Below, piece by piece: positions 7,740-58,869 of a stretch of 64,000 bases of DNA (the stretch's first letter is position 1; every line of letters starts with the position of its first letter). Position numbers and translations under genes: made by a program. The stretch spans positions 2,232,001-2,296,000 of the forward strand of contig NC_092680.1 in NCBI RefSeq assembly GCF_964355755.1, given 5' to 3'. The stretch comes from Antedon mediterranea. Taxonomy: Eukaryota; Animalia; Echinodermata. The notes beneath the pieces were generated by a model. The model saw only the letters and a program-made list of their open reading frames with translations, was not told the origin of the DNA and did no database searches.

Positions 7740-7932
7740 TGTTTGTCTTGTCTTCGTCCATAGTTTGTCTCTTGCGTATGTACCGTCTGTATAACCCCTG
7801 TTTGTCTTGTCTTCGTCCATAGTTTGTCTCTTGCGTATGTACCGTCTGTATAACCCCTGTTTGTCTTGTCTTCGTCCATAGTTTGTCTCTTGCGTATGTA
7901 CCGTGTATAACCCCTGTTTGTCTCTGTCCATG
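7740..7932. repeat. 59-bp minisatellite, about 3.2 copies
   Basis: GTTTGTCTTGTCTTCGTCCATAGTTTGTCTCTTGCGTATGTACCGTCTGTATAACCCCT at 7741, 7800 and 7859. Confidence 0.9.
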
Positions 7933-11990: not shown

Positions 11991-12076
11991 CAAGGATATA
12001 TAGGCAAGGATATATAGGCAAGGATATATAGGCAAGGATATATAGGCAAGGATATATAGGCAAGGATATATAGGCA
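11991..12076. repeat. 14-bp minisatellite (CAAGGATATATAGG)x6
   Basis: Perfect tandem copies. Confidence 0.95.
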
Positions 12077-12696: not shown

Positions 12697-12736
12697 TTAA
12701 ACGATAGCTGTAACTTGTGTGGAAGGAATGGTTTAA

Positions 12737-12883
12737 AGCTCTGTCCACACTATTAAACTTTGATGTGATGTGCCCAAATATGGTAGTAACATGGCCAAAT
12801 ATGGTAGTGATATGACATCATCATGTCCATATATGGTTACATCATATTTTTGTCACACAAAGTTTGATAGTGTAGACAGGGCT
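12737..12883. mobile_element. PIF/Harbinger (Tourist)-like MITE, family A
   Basis: TIRs AGCTCTGTC(T/C)ACACTAT / ATAGTGTAGACAG(A/G)GCT, TAA on both sides, and an internal AAATATGGTAGT duplication. Six copies occur in the window. Confidence 0.85.
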
Positions 12884-13587
12884 TAAGAAGAAGTGTATCG
12901 TCACACATTAAAAAATAACAGTCAATTGTTTTAAAAGCAAAGCTTCTTACATCATCAATCTATCTGCATTCTTGCGCGTGCGTAAAGAAAACTCAGACAA
13001 TAAAAACAATCGACGTCGATGTAGTGATTATGCTATCGATTGTAACTGGGTCACTCGGTCAATATACGATTTCTTGAGGTGTTATTATAGCTCTTATGAT
13101 GCAACGAATGCTGCAAAATAATTCAATTGATTCAAAGTAAAACAAACTTGAACCATGATAATACGTCTTAAACAGTAGACACGATTAAAAACGTTTTCTT
13201 TCTGTATATGACGCAATAGCGTTTTGGTTTTGCGTTTTAGACGCAATGTAAACGCAATTCAACTTTTTATACATTTAAATTAAATTCTAACCCCAATAAA
13301 CATTAGCTTTTATCTTATAAATTAACGGAAATAAATGATTACTATATTATTCGTCTGTCAATGAAAAATCTTCGGGATTGATGTATAGGCATATACAGAT
13401 TATTTTTAAGATCAAAACATTTGATTTCAATAGCATAATATTATAGTATATCATCTGTTCTTTTGCTATTTTTTTTGGATTATTTAGTTCCGTTTAATGT
13501 TCTTTATTAGTTATACGTTTCTATATAAAGGCCTATATCTATAAATACAATCATTTGAGTCAGTTTAGAACATAGAGTAAGAGTGAC

Positions 13588-13745
13588 AGTTCTGTCTACA
13601 CTATCAAACTAATTTGATTAAAAGTGTGATGTGTCTAAATATTGTAGTGATATGCTCAAATATGGTACTGATATGACATCATCATGCCCTTATATAGTCA
13701 CACCACAGTTTTTGTCACATCAAGTTTGATAATGTAGACAGAGCT
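13588..13745. mobile_element. MITE family A copy
   Basis: TCTGTCTACACTATCAAACT...AGTTTGATAATGTAGACAGAGCT. Confidence 0.8.
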
Positions 13746-14097
13746 TTAGATTGGCAGATCTTAACATTCAAGTGTAGGCCCTACACGGCAAAAAATCCTA
13801 TCCTTAAATTCCAGTAATTACAATTTATTATGTAATTGAAACCAATCAGCATGAAGAATAGCCATGTCTATGCATTAATGCAAGTAATTATTTTCTGACC
13901 ATCACCTGATTGTTGTAAATATCTCGTAAGGTTCTTCAACTAAAAATAATCAATATTATATCACTACAAGGTATGAAATTAGTTTTCATACGTCTGTCTG
14001 ACCTCACGACCGACCTATATTCTAAAGGTTGATAAAGTGCAAGGCTTAAGTCCAGCAGATTGCGTCTGATGCAAAGGTAGCTTCTTGTGCATCCTAA

Positions 14098-17002: not shown

Positions 17003-18230
17003 TAATTTGTAAGCGATTCTAAACGTAGGCAAGTTCATATTTTCCAACAAGCTTTTCATTAAATGAACAATACGGTACACCTTTAACCTACAAATATATG
17101 GAAATGATCACAACATGATAGCACAATACATTCCTTGAATCACCGTCAAGAGTCCCTTAAATCAGGAAATACATTCACAACATCTGGTAATGTATTAAGT
17201 TTAGATCAATACTTCCTTGTGTATAAATGAAAAACATGTACAGTACTACTGAAAACAATACAATTCGAGATTGTTCACTTTACCCATTGAGGATTTTACT
17301 TTAAATTTATTCAATAATGTTTCTTATATTTTTCTGGAACCATACTGAATTATTGTTTTGAATTGTTAATGTGGTTATTTTGTGTTTAATCAAAATAATG
17401 GTGTTTTTATATGTTTTGGAAAGTTTACACAGTAATTGTATAAACTTGAGGCAGAAGTCATCAACAAATAATACAGAACATTTTAGGATGTATTCGTACT
17501 ATATATGAATTATTAACATTTGTATATAAGAACAAGTTAGGTAATTTTGTATTTAATCACCATTGTAATGTTTTAAATGTTTTGGAATGTTCATGTCAGG
17601 CAGAAATCATATATTGCATAATATACTGTTTTTGTTGTTTATAACGTGTAGAGTTATCGACCAAGATGACAACTTTCAAGAACAATGAACAGACAGCATT
17701 AGGGAAATATAACACTATATTGAATTCATTTCTGTTTCCCTAATGCTTCTTCAGATGTTTTATCACAGTTTGGAAACTTCTTCAGTCGCAGTTCATGAGT
17801 TCAGGATTTTTGTTGAAAAATAAATGTTAGGCTCAACCATACTAATATATATATATAATTATATATATATTACTTTTCAGCAATGCTGGTTTATATATTT
17901 ATGATATTGCACAATGTCAAGAAATGTCAAGTACTTATGAAATTCCCTTTTATCAATTCCGGTAAAAGGAAATATCTGCACAGTTTTTTAAGGTCAGTGG
18001 TGGTGCTATGGAGCACAGAGCATTTGGGGTTAAATAAATAAATAAAGATGGTACATTTTCCAGAAAAAGCAAGGTTATTAAGGAAGATAATATGTTGAGA
18101 AAGAAGGAGTGAGCAGACAAAGAAGAAGAAACAAAAAAGGTGTTATGAGAAGTATGTTTAGATGGTTATGTTTTACAAAAAGATGAAGTGGAGTGAGATT
18201 AGATGTGAAAGAAAGGAAAAACAAATTAAA

Positions 18231-18376
18231 TGAAGGTAACCAGCGAAGAGAGATTGGATATGTTTTAAGAAAAGATGAAGGTAACCAGTGAAGAGAGATT
18301 GGAAATGTTTTATGAAAAGATGACGATAACCAGTGAAGAGAGATTGGATATGTTTTACGACAAGATGAAAATAACC
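18231..18376. repeat. 45-bp purine-rich minisatellite, about 3.2 copies
   Basis: TGAAGGTAACCAGTGAAGAGAGATTGGATATGTTTTA.GAAAAGA at 18231, 18276 and 18321. Confidence 0.85.
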
Positions 18377-18865
18377 TTAGGATAAGATGAAGAACAATAT
18401 ACAGAAAACATTAGATTGTTTGACTAAAAAATAAGAAGATGATATATGGTGCAGTATAGAGCGAGTTCAATGATTCTTTAAAAGAAAAATTACCACAGAA
18501 ATGACGAATATTACTATTTATTTATTATTATTCTTTTGTTTATCCCATTCAAAGAAGAAGATGTATCAATGCAGATAAGCATAATAATAACAATAATACT
18601 CACAATGCAAATATCGAAATTCAGCCGTTTAATATGCAGATGCCCTGGAGTTTATTGTTTCTAGACATAGAGTACCGTTCGAAAATCGGCTGAATATAAT
18701 ATGAACTTTCAACAAGATAACAGAATCAGTTCTGCTTTATTCTTAATTTTCTATCCTTTTAAAAGTATACATTAGGCTTAATTCTATTTGTATTTAATAA
18801 AATAACTTTATTATTTTGTACAAATAGTTTGTTTATTGACAAACGGATTTCAAAAAAAATATTAA

Positions 18866-22070: not shown

Positions 22071-23824
22071 TGGCCATTTTTCGAAAAAATCCATGTACTA
22101 TAGTAGGCCTACAGGGAAATTTCCGAAAAATGGCCGATTATATTTTCGACCCTTTTATTTTTTGACATAAATGGTTACTATTGCACAATAAACATGCGCA
22201 GAGTCGAATAATGGGTTCTGCGCATCTCAATTGTGCTATCATAACTATATTTGACATAAATGGTTACTATAGCATAATAAACATGCGCAGAGGCGAGTAA
22301 TGGGTTCTGCGCATGTCAATTGTGCTATAGTAATCAGTTTTATCGAAAAATAAAAAGGTCGAAAATTAGCCATTTTTTTGAAAAAATCCCTGTACTATAG
22401 TACAGGGAAATTTCCGAAAAATGGCCGATTTTCGACCCTTTTATTTTTTGACATAAATGGTTACTATTGCATAATAAACATGCGCAGAGTCGAATAATAG
22501 GTTCTGCGCATGTCAATTGTGCTATCATAACTATATTTGACATAAATGGTTACTATAGCATAATAAACATGCGCAGAGGTGAGTAATGGGTTCTGCGCAT
22601 GTCAATTGTGCTATAGTAATCAGTTTTATCGAAAAATAAAAAGGTCGAAAATTTGCCATTTTTTGGAAGAAAAACAGGGAAATTTCCGAAAAATGACCGA
22701 TTTTCGACCCTTTTATTTTTTGACATAAATGGTTACTATTGCATAATAAACATGCGCAGAGTCGAATAATGGGTTCTGCGCATGTCAATTGTGCTATCAT
22801 AACTATATTTGACATAAATGGTTACTATAGCATAATAAACATGCGCAGAGGCGATTAATGGGTTCTGCGCATGTCAATTGTGCTATAGTAATCAGTTTTA
22901 TCGAAAAATAAAAAGGTCGAAAATTGGCCATTTTTTGGAAAAAATCCCTGTACTATATATAGTACAGGGAAATTTCCGAAAAATGCCCGATTTTCGACCC
23001 TTTTATTTTTTGACATAAATGGTTACTATTGCATAATAAACATGCGCAGAGTCAAATAATGGGTTCTGCGCATGTCAATTGTGCTATCATAACTATATTT
23101 GACATAAATGGTTACTATAGCATAATAAACATGCGCAGAGGCGATTAATGGGTTCTGCGCATGTCAATTGTGCTATAGTAACCATTTTTATCGAAAAATA
23201 AAAAGGTCGAAAATTTGCCATTTTTTTGAAAAAATCCCTGTACTATAGTACAGGAAAATTTCCGAAAAATGGCCGATTTTCGACCCTTTTATTTTTTGAC
23301 ATAAATGGTTACTATTGCATAATAACCATGCGCAGAGTCGAATAATAGGTCCTGCGCATGTCAATTGTGCTATCATAACTATATTTGACATAAATGGTTA
23401 CTATAGCATAATAAACATGCGCAGAGGTGAGTAATGGGTTCTGCGCATGTCAATTGTGCTACAGTAATCAGTTTTATCGAAAAATAAAAAGGTCGAAAAT
23501 TTGCCATTTTTTGGAAGAAATCCCTGTACTATAGTACAGGGAAATTTCCGAAAAATGGCCGATTTTCGACCCTTTTATTTTTTGACATAAATGGTTACTA
23601 TTGCATAATAAACATGCGCAGAGTCGAATAATGGGTTCTGCGCATGTCAATTGTGCTATCATAACTATATTTGACATAAATGGTTACTATAGCATAATAA
23701 ACATGCGCAGAGGCGATTAATGGGTTCTGCGCATGTCAATTGTGCTATAGTAACCATTTTTATCGAAAAATAAAAAGGTCGAAAATTTGCCATTTTTTTG
23801 AAAAAATCCCTGTACTATAGTACA
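22070..23824. repeat. 286-bp satellite, left block (about 6 monomers)
   Basis: Each monomer has two related ~90-bp hairpin modules (GACATAAATGGTTACTA...CATGCGCAGAG...TTCTGCGCATGTCAATTGTGCTAT) and one module centred on TCCCTGTACTATAGTACAGGGA. The repeated ORFs at 23188 and 23474 show the 286-bp period. Confidence 0.95.
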
Positions 23825-26800
23825 TCCCAGGGAGCTTGGCTATGAAATTTTGAGAAAATTAGGGGGTTGGGATTATAATTGGATTGCATTAACAACGGAT
23901 TTATCATAGGTCTTGCATCCAACTTTAGCCTAAATTAGGGGGTGGGATTATACTCGAACATGGAATTATACATGGTTATATACAATAAATTGTATTTTAC
24001 TTCTGGTAACTACAGTATTTAGTAAATCATTTTGGGGCAGTACAGTAGAATCTCCCTCGTATTAAAGGGACACTGTGAAATGGATGAGAGGAATAGCTGT
24101 TCTAGGGCCAACTCCTGTTAAAGGGGACACTAATTTGTAGTTGTTCTATTATATTGCGTTTAAGTATAGCATACTGGTAGCCTGGTGATTAAACATTCCC
24201 ATTGTTAAGAAGCTGGTTCATTGGCTGATGGTGGTAACATTTGCATATGTTAATTATAGTTGTCGAAGTTGGATAATAGCGAACATTCGTTTCGGGTTGA
24301 TAGACGAAGGAGACGTTAATTTGTCGGTTGTTGAACACGATTGGAATTTACGTTCCACTCATTATGGTCCGTTGAATTACCATCTACCATCCCGAAACAG
24401 GAGCTTGCTAATGTAAAAAGCACAAACAAGTTTTAAATATTATTACTGTTATATTTATTATGCTGGTAACTGCACTAGCCATTAGACCAATGTGTATTTT
24501 AATGTTCTGTGCCTTTGAAAAAAAAAATAAGAAGCTTTTGCTATTAATAGATTATATTATACTATATCATTAGTTGATAAGTATTTTATGCACTTTCAAT
24601 GTTGTTTTGAATTTAAAAGTGTTCATTGCTGTTTAGTATTTGATTAATATTGATTATTATTATCAGACCCCTCCCCCCAGGCCTGGGGGAGGGGTCTGAT
24701 AAAAGAATACCCCCCACGAAAGCTCCGCGTGTCGTAAGAGGCGACTAAAGGAGGACTGCAGTAACAGCAGGGGGTCGGGCGCTGTTGGGTGGCACCAACA
24801 GGGTCATAAAACCGGCATATCCCCAAATACGTTCTGCAGTAGAGGCGAGTTTAGGCCGCCTCTAAATAGGCCTAGCCATGCCCTGCATTAGGCAGCAGTG
24901 ATGCAGTATGGGTGTCTCGGCGGAAGATCCATTTCTAGGACAACGGCAGACCTCAGCACACATTGTCAGGCAAGATGGTGATCCCATTTATGGCTGATAG
25001 ACTGCGGTGAAGAAGGCAACGGGAAACCACTTCACTATCATTTTTCCAAGAACAATTATGAAGTGTCACAATTCAAGAATGAAAGCTAACGGCGTAAAGG
25101 GGGTACATCCATCGTATGAAGGAGGCTCCTCGCCCGGTAGGGTGTCTCATGTGCGACAGGTGGAGCTCGACCGTCATCAAGCTACTGTCCGCAATAGAAG
25201 TACAATCAGACTAGGAACGTGGAATGTGAGGACCTTGTATCAAGATGGCAAACTTGAAAATGTTAAGCAGGAAATGATAAGACTCAATATCAATATATTA
25301 GGGATAAATGAAACTCATTGGACAAATAATGGTGAATTTATGATTGATGCTTACAAGATGATTTACGCTGGAGGAGACAAACATGAAAAAGGTGTAGGGT
25401 TGCTTTTGGATGGTGATATGGCTAAATGTATGCTGGGCTATTGGGCTGTGAGTGAAAGAGTTATGCTGGTCAAACTGCAGGGACAACCCTTCAATATCTC
25501 TATCATAGTGGTTTATGCACCTACAGCTGACAGCACAGATGAAGAGATAGATAACTTTTATGCGACCTTAGACCAGGCCAAATCCCAATGCAAATCAGAT
25601 GAGATAAATTTCATCATGGGTGATCTGAATGCAAAGGTTGGCCATGAACAAGATGGAAACACAGTTGGAGAGCATGGGATGGGTGAAAGAAATGCGCGTG
25701 GCGACAGATGGGTGAACTGGTGTAAAGCTAAGGATATGACCATAACAAATACATGGTTTAAAGAGCATCCCAGACGAATATACACATGGAAGAGCCCTGG
25801 TGATGTGACGAGGAATCAGATTGACTACATTGCAGTAAACAGTAGGTGGAAAAGGGCAGTGACTCATGCAAAAACATATCCAGGGGCAGATTGTGGAAGT
25901 GACCACATTCCAGTGGTTTGCACACTTCAATCAAAGTTAAAAAAGGTGAAGAAAGCCAAAAATGTACAGAAATTAGACTTTGAGCAGCTAAACAGTCCGG
26001 AGATCCGTTTGGAATATTCCATTCAAGTGAGGAATAAGTTTGACATCCTTGTAGATGAAGGTGAAGAGATTACGTGGGATGCAATGAGAGACATCCTTGT
26101 TGAGACAGCCAAAGAATCCTTACCTAAGAAAGAGAGAAGAAGGAAGAACAAATGGGTGTCGGAAGAGATACTATCAATGATGAGGGATAGACAGAAGATT
26201 AGTAGTAGATCAAGTAAAGAATATAAAGATCTAGATAGAGAAATTAAGCAAAAGTGCAGGGAGGCAAAAGAAAAGTGGCTTAACACACAGTGTGAGGAGA
26301 TTGAGAGTGGACTAGAGAACAACAACCACAAGATTTATCAGAGACTTAATGAGATCACTGGAAGGAAGTCTGGCTGCTCAAACTCTGGATGCATTAAGGC
26401 AAAAGATGGAACAATGCTTGTTGAAAAGACTGATATTTTGAAAAGATGGACAGAGTATATCGGGGAGCTGTTTTTTGATGTTAGACAAGCAATGCCAAGC
26501 TTTCCTGACTCAGAAGAAGGACCAAAGATCTTGAAAGCAGAAGTACGAACAGCAATCAAGAGGTTGAGGAAGAATAAGGCGGCAGGACCGGATGGTGTAG
26601 TCATCGAGATGATTGAGGCATTAGAAGAGTATGGAGTGGAAAAGTTAACTGAAGTGATCAATAAGATATACGAGGATGGAAGCTTCCCTGAGGACTTGAG
26701 TAAGTCCATTTTTATTGCCCTTCCGAAGAAACCAGGTGCTGTAGAATGTGAAAAACATCGTACAATCAGCCTCATGAGTCATGTCACCAAGATCATTCTG

Positions 26801-28044
26801 AGGATACTACTTATGAGAGCAAGAAGCAGATTAAAACCAGAGATTGGGAGTGAGCAGTTTGGTTTTGTAAAGGATTCAGGCACCAGGAATGCCATCTTTG
26901 TGATAAGAATGATAACTGAAAGGGCAGTGGAGATGCAGAAAGATGTATACATGTGTTTCATAGACTACACCAAGGCATTTGACAAAGTAAGGCATGAGCA
27001 GCTATTTCAAGAACTTAGCAAGCTTGACCTACATGGAAAGGATCTTAGATTGTTGCAAAATTTGTACTGGAAACAGACTGCATGCATGAGGGTAGATGGG
27101 GAGTGCAGTGACTACACAAGTATTGGAAGAGGAGTGAGACAGGGCTGTGTAATGTCACCAGACTTGTTTAACTACTATAGCGAGTTGATCTTGAGGGAGC
27201 TAGATAATGAGAAGGGTTTGAGAATTTGTGGTAGAAATATTACAAACATCAGATATGCAGATGACACAGTTCTACTGGCAGAGTCAGCTGAAGATCTCCA
27301 AAGGTTGCTGGATGTGGTTGTAGTAGAGAGCGAAAAGATGGGTCTGTCTATAAATTGTAGTAAGACAGAGTGTTTAGTAGTGTCAAAAAAGGAGAGTCCA
27401 ACGTGTAACCTTCAAGCAGGAGACCAGTTAATTCAGCAGGTGTCCTCTTTTAACTATCTTGGGAGCAAAATAACAGATGATGCCAGGTGTGTAACGGAGA
27501 TAAAGAGAAGGATAGTCCTTGCGAAATCCGCATTTGGAGAAATGGAGAATATCTTGAAGAACTGTGCGATGAGTATGGAAACCAGGTTGCGTGTATTAAA
27601 CTGCTACATCTATCCTGTGCTGATGTATGGAAGTGAAGCCTGGTCAATCACAACTGACCTCAGAAAAAGATTGGAAAGCTGTGAGGTGTGGTTTCTAAGG
27701 AGAATGATGAGAATTCCATGGACAGATAGAGTTAGTAATGAAGATGTATTGATAAGAGCTGGAGTATGCAGGAAACTACTGAAGGGTATTAGGATTAGAC
27801 AGATGAGATTCATGGGACATGTGTTGAGGAAGGGAGGTCTGGAGAACTTGGCATTAACGGGGAAAATAGAAGGAAGAAGGAGCAGGGGGAGGAAAAGAGT
27901 CACTTGGTTGGCCAGCATAGCTGAATGGATTCGGAATAGAGGCGAGAATACCAAAGAAGTGGAGTTGCTGAATATGGCAATAGACAGAGAATTGTGGCAC
28001 AACATGATCGCCAAAGTCTCATGATATGGCACTTCGAGAGAGAG
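23825..28044 (+). mobile_element. RTE-clade (BovB-like) non-LTR retrotransposon insertion, 4220 bp, with TSD ATAGTACA
   Basis: The satellite breaks after ATAGTACA (23817-23824) and resumes with ATAGTACA (28045-28052). The insert has a single APE-RT ORF and a very short 3' UTR ending in (GA)n. An RTE-type 5' motif, GAAGGCAACGGGAAACCACTTC, is at about 25012. The recognisable GC-rich RTE 5' region starts at about 24660. Confidence 0.93.
25058..28024 (+). CDS. RTE LINE ORF: AP-like endonuclease plus reverse transcriptase (988 aa from the first ATG; frame open from 25007)
   Basis: APE motifs GTWNVRTL, GINET, MGDLNAKVG, NQIDYI and GSDH. RT motifs KAAGPDG, RTISLMSH, QFGF, FIDYTKAFDKV, GVRQGCVMSP, YADD and FNYLGS. 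No stops or frameshifts. Confidence 0.95.
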   Translation: MKCHNSRMKANGVKGVHPSYEGGSSPGRVSHVRQVELDRHQATVRNRSTIRLGTWNVRTLYQDGKLENVKQEMIRLNINILGINETHWTNNGEFMIDAYKMIYAGGDKHEKGVGLLLDGDMAKCMLGYWAVSERVMLVKLQGQPFNISIIVVYAPTADSTDEEIDNFYATLDQAKSQCKSDEINFIMGDLNAKVGHEQDGNTVGEHGMGERNARGDRWVNWCKAKDMTITNTWFKEHPRRIYTWKSPGDVTRNQIDYIAVNSRWKRAVTHAKTYPGADCGSDHIPVVCTLQSKLKKVKKAKNVQKLDFEQLNSPEIRLEYSIQVRNKFDILVDEGEEITWDAMRDILVETAKESLPKKERRRKNKWVSEEILSMMRDRQKISSRSSKEYKDLDREIKQKCREAKEKWLNTQCEEIESGLENNNHKIYQRLNEITGRKSGCSNSGCIKAKDGTMLVEKTDILKRWTEYIGELFFDVRQAMPSFPDSEEGPKILKAEVRTAIKRLRKNKAAGPDGVVIEMIEALEEYGVEKLTEVINKIYEDGSFPEDLSKSIFIALPKKPGAVECEKHRTISLMSHVTKIILRILLMRARSRLKPEIGSEQFGFVKDSGTRNAIFVIRMITERAVEMQKDVYMCFIDYTKAFDKVRHEQLFQELSKLDLHGKDLRLLQNLYWKQTACMRVDGECSDYTSIGRGVRQGCVMSPDLFNYYSELILRELDNEKGLRICGRNITNIRYADDTVLLAESAEDLQRLLDVVVVESEKMGLSINCSKTECLVVSKKESPTCNLQAGDQLIQQVSSFNYLGSKITDDARCVTEIKRRIVLAKSAFGEMENILKNCAMSMETRLRVLNCYIYPVLMYGSEAWSITTDLRKRLESCEVWFLRRMMRIPWTDRVSNEDVLIRAGVCRKLLKGIRIRQMRFMGHVLRKGGLENLALTGKIEGRRSRGRKRVTWLASIAEWIRNRGENTKEVELLNMAIDRELWHNMIAKVS

Positions 28045-30895
28045 ATAGTACAGGGAAATTTCCGAAAAATGGCCGATTTTCGACCCTTTTATTTTTTGAC
28101 ATAAATGGTTACTCTTGCATAATAAACATGCGCAGAGTCGAATAATAGGTTCTGCGCATGTCAATTGTGCTATCATAACTATATTTGACATAAATGGTTA
28201 CTATAGCATAATAAACATGCGCAGAGGCGATTAATGGGTTCTGCGCATGTCAATTGTGCTATAGTAACCATTTTATCGAAAAATAAAAAGGTCGAAAATT
28301 TGCCATTTTTTTGAAAAAATCCCTGTACTATAGTACAGGGAAATTTCCGAAAAATGGCCGATTTTCGACCCTTTTATTTTTTGACATAAATGGTTACTAT
28401 TGCATAATAAACATGCGCAGAGTCGAATAATAGGTCCTGCGCATGTCAATTGTGCTATCATAACTATATTTGACATAAATGGTTACTATAGCATAATAAA
28501 CATGCGCAGAGGTGAGTAATGGGTTCTGCGCATGTCAATTGTGCTACAGTAATCAGTTTTATCGAAAAATAAAAAGGTCGAAAATTTGCCATTTTTTGGA
28601 AGAAATCCCTGTACTATAGTACAGGGAAATTTCCGAAAAATGGCCGATTTTCGACCCTTTTATTTTTTGACATAAATGGTTACTATTGCATAATAAACAT
28701 GCGCAGAGTCGAATAATGGGTTCTGCGCATGTCAATTGTGCTATCATAACTATATTTGACATAAATGGTTACTATAGCATAATAAACATGCGCAGAGGCG
28801 ATTAATGGGTTCTGCGCATGTCAATTGTGCTATAGTAACCATTTTTATCGAAAAATAAAAAGGTCGAAAATTTGCCATTTTTTTGAAAAAATCCCTGTAC
28901 TATAGTACAGGGAAATTTCCGAAAAATGGCCGATTTTCGACCCTTTTATTTTTTGACATAAATGGTTACTCTTGCATAATAAACATGCGCAGAGTCGAAT
29001 AATAGGTTCTGCGCATGTCAATTGTGCTATCATAACTATATTTGACATAAATGGTTACTATAGCATAATAAACATGCGCAGAGGTGAGTAATGGGTTCTG
29101 CGCATGTCAATTGTGCTATAGTAATCAGTTTTATCGAAAAATAAAAAGGTCGAAAATTTGCCATTTTTTGGAAGAAATCCCTGTACTATAGTACAGGGAA
29201 ATTTCCGAAAAATGGCCGATTTTCGACCCTTTTATTTTTTGACATAAATGGTTACTATTGCATAATAAACATGCGCAGAGTCGAATAATGGGTTCTGCGC
29301 ATGTCAATTGTGCTATCATAACTATATTTGACATAAATGGTTACTATAGCATAATAAACATGCGCAGAGGCGATTAATGGGTTCTGCGCATGTCAATTGT
29401 GCTATAGTAATCAGTTTTATCGAAAAATAAAAAGGTCGAAAATTTGCCATTTTTTTGAAAAAATCCCTCTACTATATATAGTACAGGGAAATTTCCAAAA
29501 AATGGCCGATTTTCGACCCTTTTATTTTTTGACATAAATGGTTACTATTGCATAATAAACATGCGCAGAGTCGAATAATAGGTTCTGCGCATGTCAATTG
29601 TGCTATCATAACTATATTTGACATAAATGGTTACTATAGCATAATAAACATGCGCAGAGGTGAGTAATGGGTTCTGCGCATGTCAATTGTGCTATAGTAA
29701 CCAGTTTTATCGAAAAATAAAAAGGTCGAAAATTGGCCATTTTTATGAAAAAATCCCTGTACTATAGTACAGGGAAATTTCCGAAAAATGGCCGATTTTC
29801 GACCCTTTTATTTTTTGACATAAATGGTTACTATTGCATAATAAACATGCGCAGAGTCGAATAATGGGTTCTGCGCATGTCAATTGTGCTATCATAACTA
29901 TATTTGACATAAATGGTTACTATAGCATAATAAACATGCGCAGAGGTGAGTAATGGGTTCTGCGCATGTCAATTGTGCTATAGTAACCAGTTTTATCGAA
30001 AAATAAAAAGGTCGAAAATTTGCCATTTTTTTAGAAAAAATCCCTGTACTATAGCACAGGGAAATTTCCGAAAAATGGCCGATTTTCGACCCTTTTATTT
30101 TTTGAAATAAATGGTTACTATTGCATAATAAACATGCGCAGAGTCGAATGATGGGTTCTGCGCATGTCAATTGTGCTATCAGAACTATATTTGACATAAA
30201 TGGTTACTATAGCGTATTAAACATGCGCAGAGGTGAGTAATGGGATCTGCGCATGTCAATTGTGCTAGTTTATCAATAAAAAAAAAAAGGTCGAAAATTT
30301 GCCATTTTTTTTTTAAAATCCCTGTACTATAGTACAGGGAAATTTCCAAAAAATGGCCGATTTTCGACCCTTTTATTTTTTGAAATAAATGGTTACTATT
30401 GCATAATAAACATGCGCAGAGGCGAGTAATGGGTTCTGCGCATGTCAATTGTGCTATCATAACTATATTTGACATAAATGGTTACTATAGTACAATTGAC
30501 ATGCGCAGAACCCATTATTCGACTCTGCGCATGTTTATTATGCTATAGCATGCTATAGCATGTTTATTATGCTATAGCATAATAAACATGCGCAGAGTCG
30601 ACTAATGGCTTCTGCGCATGTTAATTGTGCTATAGTAACCAATTTTATCGAAAAATAAAAAGGTCGAGAATTGGCAATTTTTTTGAAAAAATCCCTGTAC
30701 TATAGTATAGGAAAATTTTCGAAAAATGGCCGATTGTCGAATAAATGGTAACTCTTGCATAATAAACATGCGCAGAGACGAATAATAGGTTCTGCGCATG
30801 TCAATTGTGCCATAGTAACCAGTTTTAACATAAATGGTTACTATAGCATAATAAACATGCGCAGAGTTCTGCGCATGTTAATTGTCCATTTTTTC
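28045..30895. repeat. 286-bp satellite, right block (about 10 monomers, degenerating at the end)
   Basis: The 286-bp period is seen at 28273, 28559, 28845 and 29131. Monomers are nearly identical. There is an inverted module near 30481-30591. Confidence 0.95.
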
Positions 30896-34383: not shown

Positions 34384-45018
<10,635 letters not shown>

Positions 45019-45349
45019 TCAGCTAGCCCTGTTGCCAGCTACCAGGATGAATACCAACACACGAAACAAGGAAGAAAAAGAAAAAAAAACAACGTTAAGT
45101 CGGTGGTTACATATTGTATATATCCAATCACAACAGAATCGTCTTCCGCATTAACGCACCAAGCGGCTGATCATTTGTTTTAACATGCAATAAATATATC
45201 CACATACATAGGCCGAGCGATAGTGAACACTTTTAAAATTATTTGTAATTCAGTTTTTGCTTTGCTAGGCTAGATCGCCGTACCGAAACGTGTTAAGAAA
45301 ACACGCTTCCGAACCATGCAGTCGCGTTGATACGAGCGGATTAATTTTC

Positions 45350-45670
45350 AAAAGTGGGACGTACAAATGGTGTGTCTGGCTATAGAGTTGAACTATGACT
45401 CCAACATTGCGACTGTCGGTTTCTATGACATCTGTTTCCATATACGGTGTTGGATGTCATGTAGGTTAAAGGGGTGATTGGTGCTTAGTATTCGAAGGTG
45501 TTCGGTCACTGTCCCGGTCTGTGGTTACCCTATCAATCAGCTTTGAACAATCAGACTCGCTATTGGTTACTTTTTATTCTCGACTCGTAGCCCGGCAATA
45601 TCACTACGCCAGATATTGTATTTTTTAAGGAAGCCGTGGCATCCAGGGTCAAGCCCGTACGCTACCAATC
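45350..45670 (-). promoter_or_regulatory. Candidate COUP-TF proximal promoter (CCAAT boxes, DR1-like element next to a TATA-like sequence)
   Basis: CCAAT on the minus strand at 45477-45481 and 45562-45566 and on the plus strand at 45665-45669. The minus strand reads GAGTCA-T-AGTTCA (45401-45389) followed by ACTCTATAG. The region is relatively GC/CpG-rich and lies about 0.35-0.65 kb upstream of the ATG. The TSS cannot be determined from sequence. Confidence 0.5.
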
Positions 45671-47228
45671 ACCACTGCCTGCGTTTGTTTTGGCGACAGG
45701 TCACGTAAAAAGAGACAAAGGTGCGAAAGGGTAGCATCAGTAAATAAAACAAGATAACAGGTTGGAACGTCTAGCATAATGTAAACACACGACAACATAT
45801 TTAACACTCGTAATGAAAAATGTTCACGAAATGACATTTTCAATTCGATAGACGAAATTATAGAACCTGAAGCCAAATTAGGGAGGTATTTAAAAAGTTC
45901 AGAATACTTAGCCTTCAAGATTCTGTGTTTTTATCTTTAAAATCTGTCACTTAAGTTCACCATATGGTAACATTCAGTGTCAAGTTATAATGTAAAAGAG
46001 TAAATCACGTAGATAAAAAATGTGTCATTTGTGCCGTACCCTCAAACGGTATTGTACGCGCGATAGGTGCGCAATACGGTTTTTTAAAGATAAAACTTTC
46101 AAAATACGTATAGTAGTTAGGCCTATTTTTGTTTTGCTTATTATGCAGTAATACATCGCAATTTCCTACACTCCCACACGCGATAGCGATACGGGTGTTA
46201 TTGACATCGATGAAAATTACCCTCTACTAACAAATTCTTATTAATTTTCTATTCGTTAACCCGTTTCCAACAGTGCCGTAAACCGACATACATTTCGCAA
46301 ATAAGTCAATGAAGCGGCATGACTTTGGACCTGCAGGCCATAGTTAGTTCGACACCGTACGTCTACGCAGGTCTTCTGTACCTAAACTGCTGTGCCAGTA
46401 TTTGGCTTCAACCCCTCTGTTATTACAAGGAAATAAGCGAATTTCCTGCTGAACGCAGTTCGTCGCGTGTGTTGCTTTGGTTGTCATAATAAGCCTGATA
46501 CGTTCTCGTTCATCTTCACAAAATTAGAAATAATTTGTAACCTATGAGTCGACAGTGTGTCTGGCACTATGATAGATATTGGTCATTTTCTATCAAACAT
46601 CTACAGCAAATATACGCAGTTTAAATTTTATTTCGAGTACTACGTGTTAGTATTAATCAACAACCACCATAAGCTGAACGGTCGAATTCATGCTGTATTC
46701 TCAATTATTATCATTATTATTATTTTTATGACGATGTGAATTCAATTGGCAAAAGCCAGTAAAAAAGGGTATTTGACCCGACCTGGCTTCGAAGAACGAG
46801 GGCAATCGTTTTAACCCACACAATCCGATTCAATCGAGCCCGGTAGTGATAATTAAAAATACGTAATATAAAAGGGTTTTGGTATATCTATAGTAGAAAG
46901 TGCGGTACTGTACACTAAACTCATTGATACTTTAGCAAACATAAAACCTTTCAAAGGCCAGACACTATTGTTATTTCGCAAATATCCATAACGATTCATA
47001 ATGCCAAGGGGTTTGTTGAATACTATATCTACAACGTTCAACGTATACATTTTTATTCCGGGTAATGTCTGTTCGTATTCATGTAGGCTATAAAAACAAT
47101 TGTGCATGTTCAGGCTACACCCCTAGGGCGGACCAAAACCTTGGTATACGAAAAGAACACTTGATATTCATAAACATATATGGCCCAGAAGAATATACCT
47201 TATGAAGCACATGATTTAGGCCTTTATG

Positions 47229-49628
47229 GGGAAGCACATTAAATTAAACCAACTAGGCAACTGTACTATCGCCTTGCCCATAAATAATACTATTCATGAT
47301 ATGTTAAAACATTCTATATTAATAGGAATCACATTAAATTAGATGTGATTATACTAATACTTACACTACTTATTTTTTTGAAGAAAAGCGCGATTTACAA
47401 AAAAAATCACAATAGGCCTAAATTTAGAATTTTTGTTACCCTTAAAAACGAAAGGAATAAAAAAAACATTACACATGTTCGTTAGTAAATTGGAACAGGA
47501 AATCGCACAAGTGTGCCTAAAATCGCACAAGTGTGCCTAAATGTATGCTACGCCTCCGGTTTAACACGAAGGGAATCAAATTAAATTAGAAATTAATATA
47601 CCTAGATCAATATCGATTAAATCGATATAATATATCTGATTTACACAGAAATTGCAACTAAAGTTGAGTATGCAGATTAACAACAAGATCGAAAATTAAA
47701 TTCTAAAATATTTCTATATTGAGAAGTTTTTTTTCTATAAGCTTTATATAGGTTATATTTCTGTTTAGGCCCTATAAATAAAACTTGAAAGAACTATTGG
47801 AAACAAATTAAATAGGTTATGTATGGGTTTGAAAAGCGAATCACATCAAGTCCATTATATCTATAATAAATGTATAAATATAAAGCCAGAATAAAAATAA
47901 TTATAGACATAAAAATAATCTTTAAACAAAAAGATGCAACACTACATGGCCTGTTTTTAAAGTTTTTAAGAAAATCATTTAAATCTTATTCTAAACATAA
48001 CTAGAAGGGTTAATTATACGATAAATTGTCCGAGGTTGCAATCTCCAATATTAAAAAATTGGTATAAAAACGTAAATAAAAAAAAGGGAATCACATTAAA
48101 TTAAATTAAATAATTTCAAATGTACCACCAAAAATTGTAATAGGCTTAGGCCTATGTAAACAAATTATAAACAATATTATTTACCGAACAAAAAGACGCC
48201 TATGGGAAATCACATTAAATTTAATTAAATCATTTTAAATGTACCTACACTAATATCGTAGGCCTAGGCCTAGTAAAACAAACCAAATATATCAAATATT
48301 TTTAGCGAACAATAATGCTTAAATTTCTAGTAAGTAGGGAATCACATTAAATTAAATGTACTCTCATTACAGCTAAAATCACCCGTCAAAAAATATACAG
48401 GCACTGTGTGACTTATCATTAAAAACCAATATGGAAAGAAATGTTCGACACCATCACATTTATTGAACATTATTTCTAATAGGGAATCACATTAAATTAT
48501 ATACCAGTCTAACAAACACGATACGACAGTAAAACAAAAGTATCAATACATTGACATTTAAAAGTTAAAATTCTCTTTAATCGAAATGTGTAAAAAAAAA
48601 ATGTTGATAAAAAATATCTATATTAGGGAATCACATTAAATTAATATCTTGAACACTCAAACCAAGCTAATTCACAGAAAATATATACCAGGTACTAATT
48701 GTACATAGGCTTATGTCATCATTACAGTATTTAAATGTGCACGAATACAACATAACTAGTAGGGATGTAAGGGGAATCACATTAAATTAAATCCATGAAA
48801 CCTAAAGCTAGCTAATTAAATACGTTTTTATTTAAGTTTCCCTGGTTACTTGGATTATAATTACTGTAACACTAAAATATGTATGGATACAATGTACCGA
48901 ACAATTCGAATTTGAGAGGGAATCACATCAAATTAAAGCCTGAATTCCTCATTCATGGCCTATAATTAAATAAATGCAATATAGGCCAATCATCAATGAA
49001 GACATCATTAGGCGGAAAAAATACATAAGCAATATTAATTTAGGATTATAATTTCTTCTTTTTAATTAATGAGAGTGAATCAGAGATTTAACCTTATACA
49101 CAGACGTATAAGCAAAATAATGTAGTGGCATGGGGGGCCTACTCATTTTATGAAACGGCATCGCAGCAGACAACGAAAGGGAACCATGAATTATATTTAA
49201 TAACACGTGTTGGCAGGAGCAAGACAACTGATGGAATATTTTACATCATCATACACAACTCTACGGTAACTCAAATGTTTACAACAAGGAAATCACATTA
49301 AGTTAAACATTATTCATTAACAACAATAACTAATTAATATATTTAGGGCTAATGGAAAAATAAAAGATTGTTTTGCATGATGCGAGTCTTGAAGGGTAGG
49401 CCCTGTTCATGTTTTTTGGATAGGCCAAGTTTCGATTGCTTTACATGGGAATCACATTAGATTAATGCTGGCGGTAACACTCGCTACGAGGTCACCGACC
49501 AACCTAGTACAGTAGTAGTTATGATACTAATTTTGTCGAACTAAATGAATATTATGAATAAATAATTAAATTGTTTTTAATGATATATAGAATATATACA
49601 TTTTTGAACAGGGAATCACATTAGATTA
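47229..49628 (+). repeat. Interspaced direct-repeat array of the 18-mer GGGAATCACATTAAATTA (at least 13 copies, diverged spacers)
   Basis: Exact copies at 48086, 48337, 48482, 48626 and 48772. One-mismatch copies at 47229, 47324, 47571, 48918, 49447 and 49611. Two-mismatch copies at 48205 and 49288. Weak traces at 47836, 49075 and 49794. All are on the same strand. Confidence 0.92.
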
Positions 49629-51954
49629 GCCATGCGTTACAGAACAGGTTTTCACATCGTTTTAATAATTGTGTTGCTCTGCATTATGTATGCGGACACG
49701 ACAAACTGTTAGGCTTATAGGAACGCTGAGGAGGAGATACCGTTATAAATAATGTACGGATAGTCTGTGGTGATTGTTTTGGTCATCGTAATTAGAAATC
49801 ACGTGATCTTAACGGTGCTATTTCAACATTTGATATACAGTAGTAGTATTACGTACGGTATAAAATGACGTTATTCATCATTTTAAAACAATTTATCGGT
49901 AACATACTATTTTATATTGAACTACTAATTGTGAGTGAGGTATTGTTATGGAAATGCACTGCAATTAAACCATTTTTTAAAACTTGACCTTTTATGAAAT
50001 GTTATTCAACATTTATTTTGTTGTTTGTAAACGTTCAATAACAACGAACAAAAACAATAATTGAAAATGGATCTTTATGGACTATATAATTATAAATTTG
50101 CTGGGTTATATCACATTTGTTTTTGTGTACTATATATAACCTAGACATTGTATGTCTCCATCTTTCTACATTAATTAACCTATATTTTAGATAGTATTTA
50201 GATTTAGATAGATCAGTATAGTTCTCTTGCAAAATAATGACAATTTAATACTTAATTACTATATGTACTGAAAGTCATGCTAGCTTTGATTAATTCTATC
50301 AATATTCCGAAGCGTTTAAAATCACTTGAGGACACTCTAGCTAATTCTTCCACAACTAAAGTCAAGGTAGAAATGCTAATCTTATCGGCTAGACGGTATG
50401 TGTTTATTATGCAATGGTAAGCTGGTCCAAGGGCGTGTCCTCATCAGGTGAAGGATATTGAAAAAAAGTTAACTTTGATGGTTTTAATCGAAAATGAAAT
50501 AAATATATTTGTATTTTTTATGTATAATTTATAAGGAGGAATATTAAGAAAGGAGTAGGCCCAAAAAAGTTAAATTGGGGAAGTTTTTACCGGAATTTCC
50601 CGTTTGAAATTTCCAAAGGTAAGAATAAGGATAAGTGGTACTGTAGTAAATATAGTAAACTCTTTCAATGCGAGTACAATTTAAAAGTGAAATTTAAGAA
50701 AAATCTACCTACAATGGTAATTTATTTTCGTAAAATCATTAATAAAATAAATTAAAATACAAATTAAAAAAAGTATTAACCATATATTTTACAATTTCGC
50801 TTTCCTCTGGTAAACTTGTTTTGGTTATATTTTAGGCCTTTTTATAATCCTATAAAATATGTAAAACATATGCCAACTAGTACAAAGACACATATAGGCC
50901 TACTGTTTATGGTCATCATGATTAAGGCTATACTATACATATTTACATAAATATAGTTACCAGCAGCAGCAAATCAGTATAACAGAGGTTGATTTGTACA
51001 ATGATTTATTAAGTTCATTTTAATTAGGCCCACGCAACAGGTATACATGTTTATTACCAAAATAGCATACTGTTGAACATGTGAAGGTTTACCATTTGCA
51101 TAATCGTATGTTATACCAGGCTATCTGTGTACATAATTATCAAATGAATTATGATTTAAATTAATATTTTATGCAAACAAATCAGTCATCAACCAAATAT
51201 GCATTAATTTAAACACAGCTAAAATAATAACAATAAGACAGATACTAAACAATTATTATAGACTTTGTTGACAAGATCACAAATAAGTTACTATTATTTA
51301 TTATTATTAACATGTGTTGTGTCTACGATGCCGACGTGTATCCGTAGTATTATTGTTACTGTTTATATAATGTATACCGCCGCGATTGACTTCGTTCCGC
51401 CTTACCTTAAAGCGTTTTACTTGTCAGCACTCCTATAGACTTATCCTACGACGAAAAACTCTCATAGTAAACCTGCAACACATTAAACACTGCTATATAG
51501 ATAATAAGTTGTGAAAACTAAATAGTATATAAGTCCACTACTCTTAATCATCACTCCGTTCTCTCTAACGTAATGGGGAAGACACAGACATTCACCATGG
51601 TTTTAAACGAATGCTTAATTTGGATTTAAACTTATTGTAAAGGATCCCTCTACGGCAGACAGACGAACCCTCGTCATTAAATATATCCCCGAGCGAGAGA
51701 GCTGCTTGCACGAACAGCCTGTCTATAGAAACGGCTACCCTTCTATCATTTCAAAACATCAGACATACAAAATTGATCCATTTACGCATGGCGGTATTAA
51801 TCAATATCCAACGCATTGATTTACCGTTGATGTAAACTGATAGATTATATGATAGCGTGGGACATTTTTTGTTGTTAATGTACCCACATTTTATAAGACG
51901 ATACGCTTTCATATAATATCATTCATCTTACTCTGCTTATTCCACGGAACATAC

Positions 51955-52076
51955 CAAACTAGTGTGATGTACCCAAGTATGGTAGTGATATGCTCAAATA
52001 TGGTAGTGATATGATGTCCATATATGGGCACATCACATATTTTTGTCACATAAAGTTTGATAGTGTAGACAGAGCT
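51955..52076. mobile_element. MITE family A copy (left end lost)
   Basis: GTGATGTACCCAAGTATGGTAGTGATATG...AAAGTTTGATAGTGTAGACAGAGCT. Confidence 0.8.
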
Positions 52077-55000
52077 TTAAGTGACCAATAAGAATACTGT
52101 ACTAAAAAATCGATGCGCACGTACACAATATGTAGGCCTATTACGCATGCGTCAATGTCATGTAGTCTCCATTTTGTCTGTTGATGTAAAATGTCTTGAA
52201 TATGTAGCTCTACATACATACTAATTTGTAGTTTCAGTCGAAATTTAATTACCGAATTCGGCTTGTTACATATCTTATAATCAGTATTATTAATATTGTA
52301 ATAATGGATAATGAATTCTATTGTAATTATTGAACTTCAAACGCGCACCGTATAACAACAAGATTTAAATTTTACAATAAACATTCAAAAGCCTTAATTA
52401 TTATTACTATTATCAATTTTTATTTCAAAACATTATGTTTAATATAGGTGTAGGCCTGGCTGTATATAGCTATACTGGATAAGGTGTAATAACACAAGGA
52501 AAACACACTCATATATAAATCCCTTTTATACAACCATTTTGTAGCAAGTCAATATTTTCAAATCTGATTTATTTTTGTTTTCTCATTCGTGATCTAATTT
52601 ACATATTATGTATTTGTACAACGTCTGCCATGTCATAATGCTCAATGTTCTAACAAATATAGAAATACTCGATTTTAACCAAATCTATATACAGTACCGT
52701 AATATTCACGTAATTCACTGTACAAATTGGTATAGAGTACAAACCCCTATATTAGTTGTCCCCTGATTAGGGTGGTCCCCTTAATAAGGCTTATATTAGG
52801 CCTATACTTTCGTAATACGGGGTTTCTCCTGAATAGGAGGTGTTCCAAAGGAAAGGTTATTATATATACTTTGTATAAATTTACTTTGGCCTATTCTTCA
52901 TTTACATATTAACACTCTGATATATATTTACACAGTCTCTCACTCTTGCAGTCTGTTATGGCATTATGCTCACTGCAATCCTGCAATGTAGGCCTAACTT
53001 GATTTCAACATTTCTAATCTGATTCGATTCTCGTTTAAATTGGATATTCATGTAGGAGGCGTGAGTGTATGATGCATAATAATAATAAAGTGTTGTCTAT
53101 TGAATACGGTACTTGTGAATGCGTAAATCTATTTATCTAAATTGTGTTGCATTGCACCCTGGAAATAATCAAAATACAAAATAATAAAACAAAATAAAAG
53201 CATTACCTGCATAAAACCAGATTTCTACCTTAAAAACCGAGTAAACATATATCAGTATAGTTTTTATATTTTTTCAAGTTGTTAATTTTGATGACAATTT
53301 AAGCCATTCAAATAGCACTATATTACTGTAGGTTATTATAGATAAAACTATATTTTGAAGTAACATTAATTCTCTAATTTTAATCTTAATAAAAAAATAA
53401 TTTTTAATGTTACCTATCGGTACAACTGGTTATAGATATATCAATCGTTATGGATAAAACTTACTCAACGTAACATAACTTTAAAAGATCAGCCGTTATA
53501 GTCTTTTGTTAACAACAATTATCAAGGCATACATATAATTATATTGGTATTTTCAAGCCTACAGGTATGTGTAAAACATTGCTGTAACCGGTAAATGATA
53601 ACGATGATAATTTATATAAGTCAATGTGTTATCAGCTTTTATCGAAGGTTCATACACTAATGATAAAAACATAATGATATTACAAAGCTATGAGTTCTGT
53701 TTTATGATTGGCATATAACAATGAAATACAGAATATATTGACAAAAGTAACACACAAATAAATAAAAGGTAATTCATTTTTTATTAAGGTGCTTAACACC
53801 GTCAACAAAATTACGCGCGCGTACAAAAACACATAGTAATCAACGTCAAAAGAAAACATCTTCGCGAATTCAATTTGATTTAAAATAACCACCACACTTT
53901 CACAAAAAGTTCATAATAATGGTTTCAAATTTGACCGACTGATCACAAAGTAAAGGTTACAATTCTAATTTATTCATTACTATCGCAGCATAATTAAATT
54001 ATTTTATAAATTAAATTATATGTTCCAATTTGTTGAACATTATTATTAGACTTGTTGAAGAACAGTATCATTTTATTTAACACCAAACACAATTTTATAT
54101 GAATATTTAAAGTAGTATTTTTAAGTAGGCCTAAACTTTGTATTTTAAGGACAATGTAAGTGATATGCTTAGTACGGTACCGTAGTATAGTAGTGAAGGT
54201 GATATACTAGTAGTATTTAAGGACAAATATCTCACTTAAAGGATAAACTAAGTATTTAAGGTTTCAGAAAACATCGTTTTCAGCAACATTGTGTGTTTCC
54301 TAATTTCATTTGGCGGATTGGGAACAAAGGTGATTGAATGCTATTACCCTAATTTATCTAAAACGGTTACATAATTAATAATTAATGGATATCTCGTTCA
54401 AAAATGTGTATATTAACTAATTTACGTGTAACACATTGCTGTCTCATAGACCCATAAAATGTGATCAGATCATATCAAATTCTAATCGCATATAAACACA
54501 GTGTTATCAATGTACAAATATATCAAATATTAAAACTTATTTGTTCGTTTGTCTACTAGCAAAGTTCATTTTCATAATAAATTACCTTTCAAATAGAACA
54601 AATAAAAAAGGATGATTTCACTGGGTATATTCGGAGACAAGAGTTTGCTACGAAGAAGAAATTGGACGATAATGGCTGAGTGAAAAGACTAAAAAAAAAG
54701 AGCTGAAGATCCTAAAGAGTGGTAGAGACGTCAATGAGAGACAAGAGACAAACTACTGCGTACGCGTATTAATTCTGATGTTCAGCTTGAGTACGCGCAT
54801 TGACTACATGATGATATCACATCAGAAATTGATTTTATAGCAGGGGATAAGATTGTTTTATTTACATTGCTAAACATGCCAATTTACTATAGTAAACATT
54901 TGTGAGACGTATAAGCTTTTTCAATATAAACACGTAGAGGTCATTATGTAAACACAAAGGTCATCCATAACATATCTTAGTCGCAAATTCTAAGTTAATC

Positions 55001-56252: not shown

Positions 56253-56405
56253 AGCGCTGTCTTCACTATAAACCTAGTGTGATGAGCCAAAATATGATTG
56301 TGATATACCCAAATAATATGGTAGTGATATGACATCAAATTCATCATGTCCACTATGGGCACATCACATTTTTTTGTCACATAAAGTTTGATAGTGTAGA
56401 CAGCT
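56253..56405. mobile_element. MITE family A copy
   Basis: AGCGCTGTCTTCACTATAAAC...AAAGTTTGATAGTGTAGACAGCT. Confidence 0.75.
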
Positions 56406-58748: not shown

Positions 58749-58869
58749 TATGGCTATATGGAGAGCCATATGGCTATATGGAGAGCCATATGGCTATGTG
58801 GAGAGCCATATGGCTATGTGGAGAGCCATATGGCTATATGGAGAGCCATGTGGCTATATGGAGAGCCAT
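58749..58869. repeat. 20-bp minisatellite (TATGGCTATATGGAGAGCCA)x6
   Basis: Near-perfect tandem copies. The junctions form the palindrome AGCCATATGGCT. Confidence 0.95.

Follow-up and report, generated by a model that had tools for sequence, protein, structure and literature searches.

On structure, the array described here seems most like the MORC3-repressed element (MRE) of IFNB1, a tandem-repeat enhancer with clustered SPI/PU.1 motifs, in which clustered motifs have been retained throughout the mammals even though the units differ in size and consensus (PMC13373173, in the excerpts available). A unit of the MRE holds about five short ETS-type motifs and has a definable consensus, and both factor and function have been shown (same excerpts). 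The present array resembles it as a tandem repeat near a (here putatively) regulated gene, as a homotypic cluster, and in its variable unit number, but carries a single near-invariant 18-bp word per unit, has spacers near saturation within the one array, and has a role that is only predicted. Within the array, the motif is likewise kept above the rest of the unit; between species, this holds only when the outermost copy (copy 1) is left out.

The gypsy insulator, which lies within a retrotransposon, comprises 12 Su(Hw) sites in 340 bp at a pitch of ~28 bp, according to partial texts of two accounts (PMC2374998; PMC5416891). It, too, repeats a single site some dozen times in an AT-rich setting; however, the present array looks single-copy, has a pitch of 95-515 bp and a different sequence, and the likeness is one of layout only. 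In Meloidogyne, a CENP-B-box-like motif, Box 1, is conserved in divergent satellite monomers, and a persistence based on exchange has been proposed (PMC3694981, in the sections at hand). Common to both cases are a box of 17-18 bp, very divergent monomers, and junctions at the box, but the Meloidogyne motif belongs to abundant satellite families with homogeneous arrays, whereas the present word occupies one 2.4-kb locus beside a developmental gene and forms no homogeneous array.

Echinoderms provide a precedent for repeat-born enhancers in the RSR enhancers of the strongylocentrotid spec genes, which are lineage-restricted and repeat-derived (Dayal et al., 2004, as cited in an excerpt of PMC5010895); these form a repeat family, in contrast to the present array, which is tandem and local and has a single conserved word in each unit. 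The same gene as that next to our array has been studied in Paracentrotus lividus: the upstream sites RE1-RE3 of Coup-TF module a are bound by embryo nuclear proteins and lie at -532 to -232, the study covering only 1930 bp upstream, as far as its available text goes (PMC4227642). However, these are single sites, and a likeness of our word to RE1/RE2 was rejected, as the 8 bases in common with RE2 are not above chance (p = 0.14, 0.12, and 0.44 under three nulls). The literature listings within reach of our search, which lack most subscription papers, yielded no description of the array or of the 18-bp word.

The array and its genomic setting

In the 64-kb window (the whole stretch of DNA that was analyzed), a search allowing up to 3 mismatches finds the 18-bp word 13 times, always on the plus strand, five times exactly and never with more than 2 mismatches. 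Copies 1-7 start at 47229, 47324, 47571, 48086, 48205, 48337, and 48482, and copies 8-13 at 48626, 48772, 48918, 49288, 49447, and 49611, such that the array spans 47229..49628 (29% GC). The array is a real feature: 0.24 matches are expected by chance, and 13 copies were reached in none of 100 shuffles; as the word was chosen from the same data, the shuffle test overstates the rarity, but the gap is nevertheless large. The initial annotation had given the same copies, strand and positions, and its start-to-start distances (119-146 bp in the core; 159 and 164 bp at the end) were reproduced exactly within the full series of 95, 247, 515, 119, 132, 145, 144, 146, 146, 370, 159, and 164 bp. Its period of ~145 bp fared less well: the value describes four neighboring intervals (145, 144, 146, and 146 bp), i.e., only 4 of 12. 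The five exact copies are central, within a core formed by copies 4-10 (48086..48935, plus strand; intervals 119-146 bp), and decayed copies lie at the array edges.

All 18 motif columns are kept in 11-13 of the 13 copies, compared to at most 10 of 13 for flanking columns (array alignment). The word has an information content of ~30 bits, and the lowest-scoring copy reaches 24.5 vs. 11.4 for the top site outside the array. The initial annotation had not seen the motif elsewhere in the window; a single other site in the 64 kb, at 5311, has 4 mismatches or fewer. Its account is refined by two decayed copies with 5 mismatches each (starts 47798 and 47836; 47798..47853, plus strand; 0.3 expected), both of which fall inside the 515-bp gap of the array. 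The A-skew of the array is strong (0.15), and Tandem Repeats Finder, run on the window, did not report the array among its repeats. Immediately after copy 2, one 8-base half of that copy recurs in inverted form, which creates a short palindrome (47328-47350).

COUP-TF, the gene nearest to the array, is encoded on the minus strand by three coding exons: exon 1 (44413..45015; N-terminus and DNA-binding domain), exon 2 (41472..41984; part of the ligand-binding domain), and the last coding exon (34384..34660; start approximate). Exon 2 is 95-96% identical to the proteins of sea urchin, sea star, and sea cucumber, 91% to that of a hemichordate, and at most 86% to those of vertebrates, which identifies the host as an echinoderm. 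The N-terminus looks unlike its counterparts in these three echinoderm classes, and a homologue search with the N-terminal 135 residues found none. Because the gene is on the minus strand and the first ATG of the exon-1 frame is at 45015, the array lies 2.2-4.6 kb upstream of COUP-TF, as had been annotated. A probable COUP-TF promoter occupies 45420..45570 (minus strand), such that the array lies ~1.7-4.1 kb upstream of it. Two CCAAT boxes (45562 and 45477) are found there, along with a CArG-like box near 45439-45448. Compared by eye, these boxes match a published alignment of the conserved Nr2f promoter (PMC10735318, supplement, in the portion available), and the bilaterian-conserved Nr2f promoter appears to be present here. 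The array itself contains three ATG frames of 42-46 codons, but no gene and nothing longer, and the 14 kb beyond its far side hold no other gene. That COUP-TF is the target gene of the array is assumed from this proximity.

A single contig from run X1, 9744 bases long, runs unbroken through the array (42250-51993), although X1 is probably the window's own source and thus not independent. The two ends of this contig fall at an ATCT microsatellite and within a ~120-bp element that occurs at least five times in the window; a contig of a related organism, B, breaks within the same element. Assembly graphs break at repeated words, and as the contig crosses the array unbroken, the array should have no near-identical copy elsewhere. 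It therefore looks single-copy in the genome, and old, diverged relatives may exist. No terminal inverted repeats were found around the array, and the best outside match of a nine-unit profile scanned over the window was no better than E = 0.03. A dispersed young transposon or MITE was rejected because inverted ends are missing, no unit occurs elsewhere in the window, and the spanning contig is unbroken; an ordinary satellite was rejected because the monomer is not homogenized, with spacers 63-77% identical at best vs. 98% in the window's own 286-bp satellite. This bears out the earlier view that the array is no ordinary satellite, and the possibility raised with it, that the motif is part of a common dispersed transposable element or satellite, did not materialize in the contig, the ends or the spacers.

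The surroundings are rich in repeats of other kinds. The ~120-bp element is MITE-like, with inverted ends (51955-52080), and contigs of two organisms break inside it; further copies lie at about 12733-12884, 13588-13748, 40202-40398, and 56260-56403. Two blocks of the 286-bp satellite (22110-23824 and 28045-30509; 98% monomer identity) flank a 1007-codon ORF (25001-28024, plus strand), which, recognized by eye, looks like an RTE-type LINE with endonuclease and reverse transcriptase. Ordinary minisatellites occur at 786-994, 7740-7928, 11991-12076, 18230-18408, and 58749-58869 (periods 21, 59, 14, 45, and 20). Outside the window, a two-copy pattern of the word was found at 2 loci in metagenome contigs (L001:283-670 and L002:70-665), which were rejected as relatives: they belong to an unrelated homogeneous satellite of ~130 bp with 3-4 mismatches to the word. 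This satellite carries a 15-base part of the word, and a second satellite of ~120 bp lies beside it. A lone copy of the word in one viral contig, in DNA of 25% GC, was taken as chance.

Duplication of units and conservation of the word

Several spacers retain traces of common descent. Units 4 and 5 (48086..48336, plus strand) represent an older tandem duplication, with spacers 77% identical (z 13), copy 4 being followed by one extra AATTA step. Units 6-9 (48337..48917, plus strand) measure 145, 144, 146, and 146 bp and combine four exact motifs with faintly homologous spacers: their sum-of-pairs score is 53.0 vs. 41.6 ± 3.2 for shuffled sequences, none of 300 shuffles reached it (p = 0.003), and the largest z among 38 control sets from the rest of the window was 2.95. 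Spacers had been described as mostly unalignable, which is accurate for 76 of the 78 pairs; the other 2 align locally at p < 0.02 (units 4/5 being strongest), and the faint homology of spacers 6-9 also departs from that description.

The array differs in unit number between related organisms. Two runs of organism B, X6 and X8, fill all 30 bins into which 46900-50100 was divided, with ~4% substitutions (in X8, 74 relative to the window in 46900-48721 and 60 in 48731-50092). In both runs, 48765 is joined, with two letters in between, to a point 140 bp further back, at 48626, where motif 8 begins, and the depth of the resulting loop is 100 vs. 45-55 in X6 and 392 vs. 230-247 in X8, with the caveat that contig depth is a rough measure and that both runs come from one study. 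We read this as a gain of roughly two further 142-bp units in organism B, i.e., ~3 copies of unit 8 (48626..48765, plus strand). Joint and loop depth imply that the array gains or loses whole units. Spacer homology and this unit gain both reveal a tandemly duplicated make-up, and the array is likely an old tandem repeat that grew by copying a unit of ~145 bp. In an organism C (run X14), 49451-49970 is covered, and the sequence departs from the window by 14 substitutions and 14 gap letters. Runs X13 and X9 gave no match over 48082-49700, a result that carries no weight as evidence. Run X5, another sample of organism A, has zero differences over 421 bases (49054-49474), including copies 11 and 12; X5 is represented there by two contigs of low depth (2.6-4), whose RNA origin is a guess and no evidence of transcription.

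The initial annotation proposed that the motif had been kept while the spacers drifted. Within the array, this is borne out: copies of the motif differ pairwise by 8%, whereas spacers 8/9 align at 63% vs. 60% for shuffles. A neutral simulation without gene conversion left four units with an identical 18-bp block in none of 5000 runs when the spacers were 60% identical, in 1 of 5000 at 70%, and in 72 of 5000 at 80%, and hence the argument holds only if the spacers are taken to be as diverged as they look. Between species, in the comparison of motif and spacer that the same annotation had suggested, the outcome is divided. Over all 8 scorable copies, organisms A and B differ at 4 of 145 motif and 66 of 1461 spacer positions (p = 0.23). 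Without copy 1, the counts are 1 of 127 vs. 66 of 1461 (p = 0.024), an exclusion decided post hoc after the data had been seen, and in the core alone 1 of 91 vs. 39 of 662 (p = 0.034). These counts rest on the 78 differences listed for X8, from listings that gave 40 out of 140 and 40 out of 80 rows, assumed to be complete and in positional order up to 48994, with 48338-48359 and 48626-48763 masked for piece overlap. The scorable copies are thus 8 of 13, copies 6 and 8 being masked and copies 11-13 lying beyond the listed differences. With 3 substitutions between A and B, the outermost copy 1 (47229..47246, plus strand) behaves as a drifting edge copy. The sole other motif change, in copy 5, is towards the consensus, and a single one of the 20 listed indels reaches into a motif, where it affects the first base (copy 2). 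We consider it likely that the 18-bp word is kept by selection.

Unit length and the anatomy of the word

The similar length of the central units could reflect constraint or descent. Four consecutive intervals within 2 bp have a probability of 0.0013 if lengths wander like other short intervals, and any four of nine intervals within 2 bp one of 0.02, both calculated post hoc; in organism B, the length of units 4-7 is kept within 2 bp despite eight indel events. Some constraint on unit length is possible, but the 145-bp period may be explained more simply as the length of the duplicated unit. The initial annotation had instead related the period to the nucleosome, the core of which comprises 147 bp. 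This idea found no support, because an 18-bp site plus a 147-bp core exceed a 145-bp period. Moreover, 145 bp falls below measured nucleosome repeat lengths, which are ~250 bp in sea urchin and ~160 bp in human cells (bioRxiv 10.1101/2025.05.12.653534, in the portion available). The core spacers measure 126-128 bp, and lengths of 144-146 bp are confined to 4 of 12 intervals. A constant helical phase of the motifs was not found (R was 0.18-0.30 over the full set of copies and reached 0.65 in the core with one of the four periods tried), nor was AA/TT periodicity in the array. A nucleosome-phased array in the usual sense was therefore rejected on sequence grounds, as its period fits no core plus linker and its motifs keep no constant helical phase.

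The word itself can be read as a predicted composite site in which three ATYA cores, set 5 bp apart from start to start, come after GGGA. On the COUP-TF strand, these cores are TAAT/TAAT/TGAT, which we take to be of the homeodomain type. Among variants in the 14-bp core part, 5 of 7 hit linkers or keep TAAT/TGAT/TAAC-type cores (p = 0.016-0.10, post hoc). An invariant footprint of 18 bp would also fit six zinc fingers. With ~30 bits and near-zero degeneracy, the word is stricter than ordinary enhancer sites, a strictness that would suit one long-footprint protein or RNA pairing equally.

Explanations for the array

The explanation that we favor, and to which we give about an even chance, is that of a predicted homotypic binding array, built by tandem duplication, which would act on COUP-TF as an enhancer or silencer; a binding array of this kind was among the candidate roles named in the initial annotation. 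The row of 13 words would have arisen as one ~145-bp unit was tandemly duplicated over and over, with selection holding only the word in each unit as a predicted protein-docking site. Unequal exchange would add or remove whole units centrally, while edge copies decay and spacers drift, and the 145-bp period would be inherited as unit length, perhaps partly constrained. Because each word is a putative composite site, copy number would tune the input to COUP-TF, i.e., set its strength or threshold. With 126-128 bp between them, occupied words would keep nucleosomes out instead of phasing them. Overall, the array is probably selected, private to this locus, and still changing in unit number. A bolder version, which we think distinctly unlikely, invokes an as yet undescribed DNA-binding system of echinoderms that reads a triple-core word and needs the ~145-bp spacing. 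The word would then be recognized through GGGA and its three homeodomain-type cores, which would lie on alternating faces of the helix, the array would form a nucleosome-free protein scaffold, and unit number would serve as an evolvable dial for COUP-TF that is still turning between sister species.

A single long-footprint protein per word, e.g., one with a cluster of six zinc fingers, could instead make the array an insulator, boundary, or tether, a possibility that we regard as unlikely but deserving of attention. Eighteen contiguous near-invariant bases (~30 bits) would suit such a protein. The layout recalls the 12 Su(Hw) sites of gypsy in AT-rich DNA, and Su(Hw) recognizes a compound consensus of ~26 nt, according to the available parts of these reports (PMC2374998; PMC5416891). 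That all copies share one orientation also fits, but is uninformative, as tandem duplication alone yields it. However, such factors have many genomic sites, mostly single ones, in the account excerpted (PMC2374998), whereas no further contig matched the motif in runs X1 or X8 (a weak point, as the records were filtered), and the 14 kb beyond the array offer no other gene to insulate from. Even less probable, in our view, is a non-functional relic, i.e., a decayed satellite or transposon-internal repeat in which the short box persists via exchanges and short conversion tracts. The duplication joint of organism B falls on the first base of the motif, edge copies decay, and the all-copy test between species gave p = 0.23. 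In addition, the 17-bp Box 1 is conserved among satellites only 32% alike and marks their junctions (PMC3694981, in part). Crossing-over, however, copies motif and spacer jointly and would not itself purge motif mutations, and the neutral simulation (0-1 of 5000 at 60-70% identity, without gene conversion) argues against this reading. So do the missing terminal inverted repeats, the lack of a related unit elsewhere in the window, the unbroken contig, and the 98% monomer identity that a true satellite displays in the same window.

The words might also act in RNA, as protein- or small-RNA-binding repeats in a non-coding transcript, either divergent or upstream. In Xist repeat A and NORAD, conserved cores are joined by variable linkers, and the single strand, the sharp edges, and the A-skew of 0.15 would be in line with a transcript. 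We nevertheless judge this to be rather improbable, since no conserved fold was found around the motif on either strand, Rfam gives one match in 10 kb (E = 4.2), and the variants point to no pairing rule. Hardly credible, finally, are CRISPR-like acquisition, in which the word is copied whenever a foreign or unique spacer joins the array, and a small-RNA gene cluster with the word as promoter or processing signal of each spacer. The repeat-spacer look and the fact that only 2 of 78 spacer pairs align (p < 0.02) might suggest either, but spacers descend from one another, growth in organism B copied an existing central unit, and decay affects both ends instead of being polar, and a CRISPR-like array was rejected on these observations. 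Small-RNA promoter or processing signals, which the initial annotation had listed among candidate roles, found no support: no second conserved element at a fixed distance and no hairpin accompany the motif. A miRNA or structured-RNA cluster was rejected, as the motif pairs over 4-15 of its 18 bases and lies on a different arm from copy to copy, and no Rfam family was matched.

If the array is a relic, it would be a clear case of a short box that outlasts its own satellite. If, as we favor, it is a functional binding array, it would show, as is seldom possible, how tandem duplication builds and prunes an enhancer next to a conserved neurodevelopmental regulator: within 2.4 kb, old duplications lie alongside recent ones, copies at the edges have decayed, and unit number differs between species. 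With its 30 bits and 13 copies, the word is exceptionally well suited as bait for the binding factor, and the array would make the tuning of a developmental gene by site copy number directly testable.
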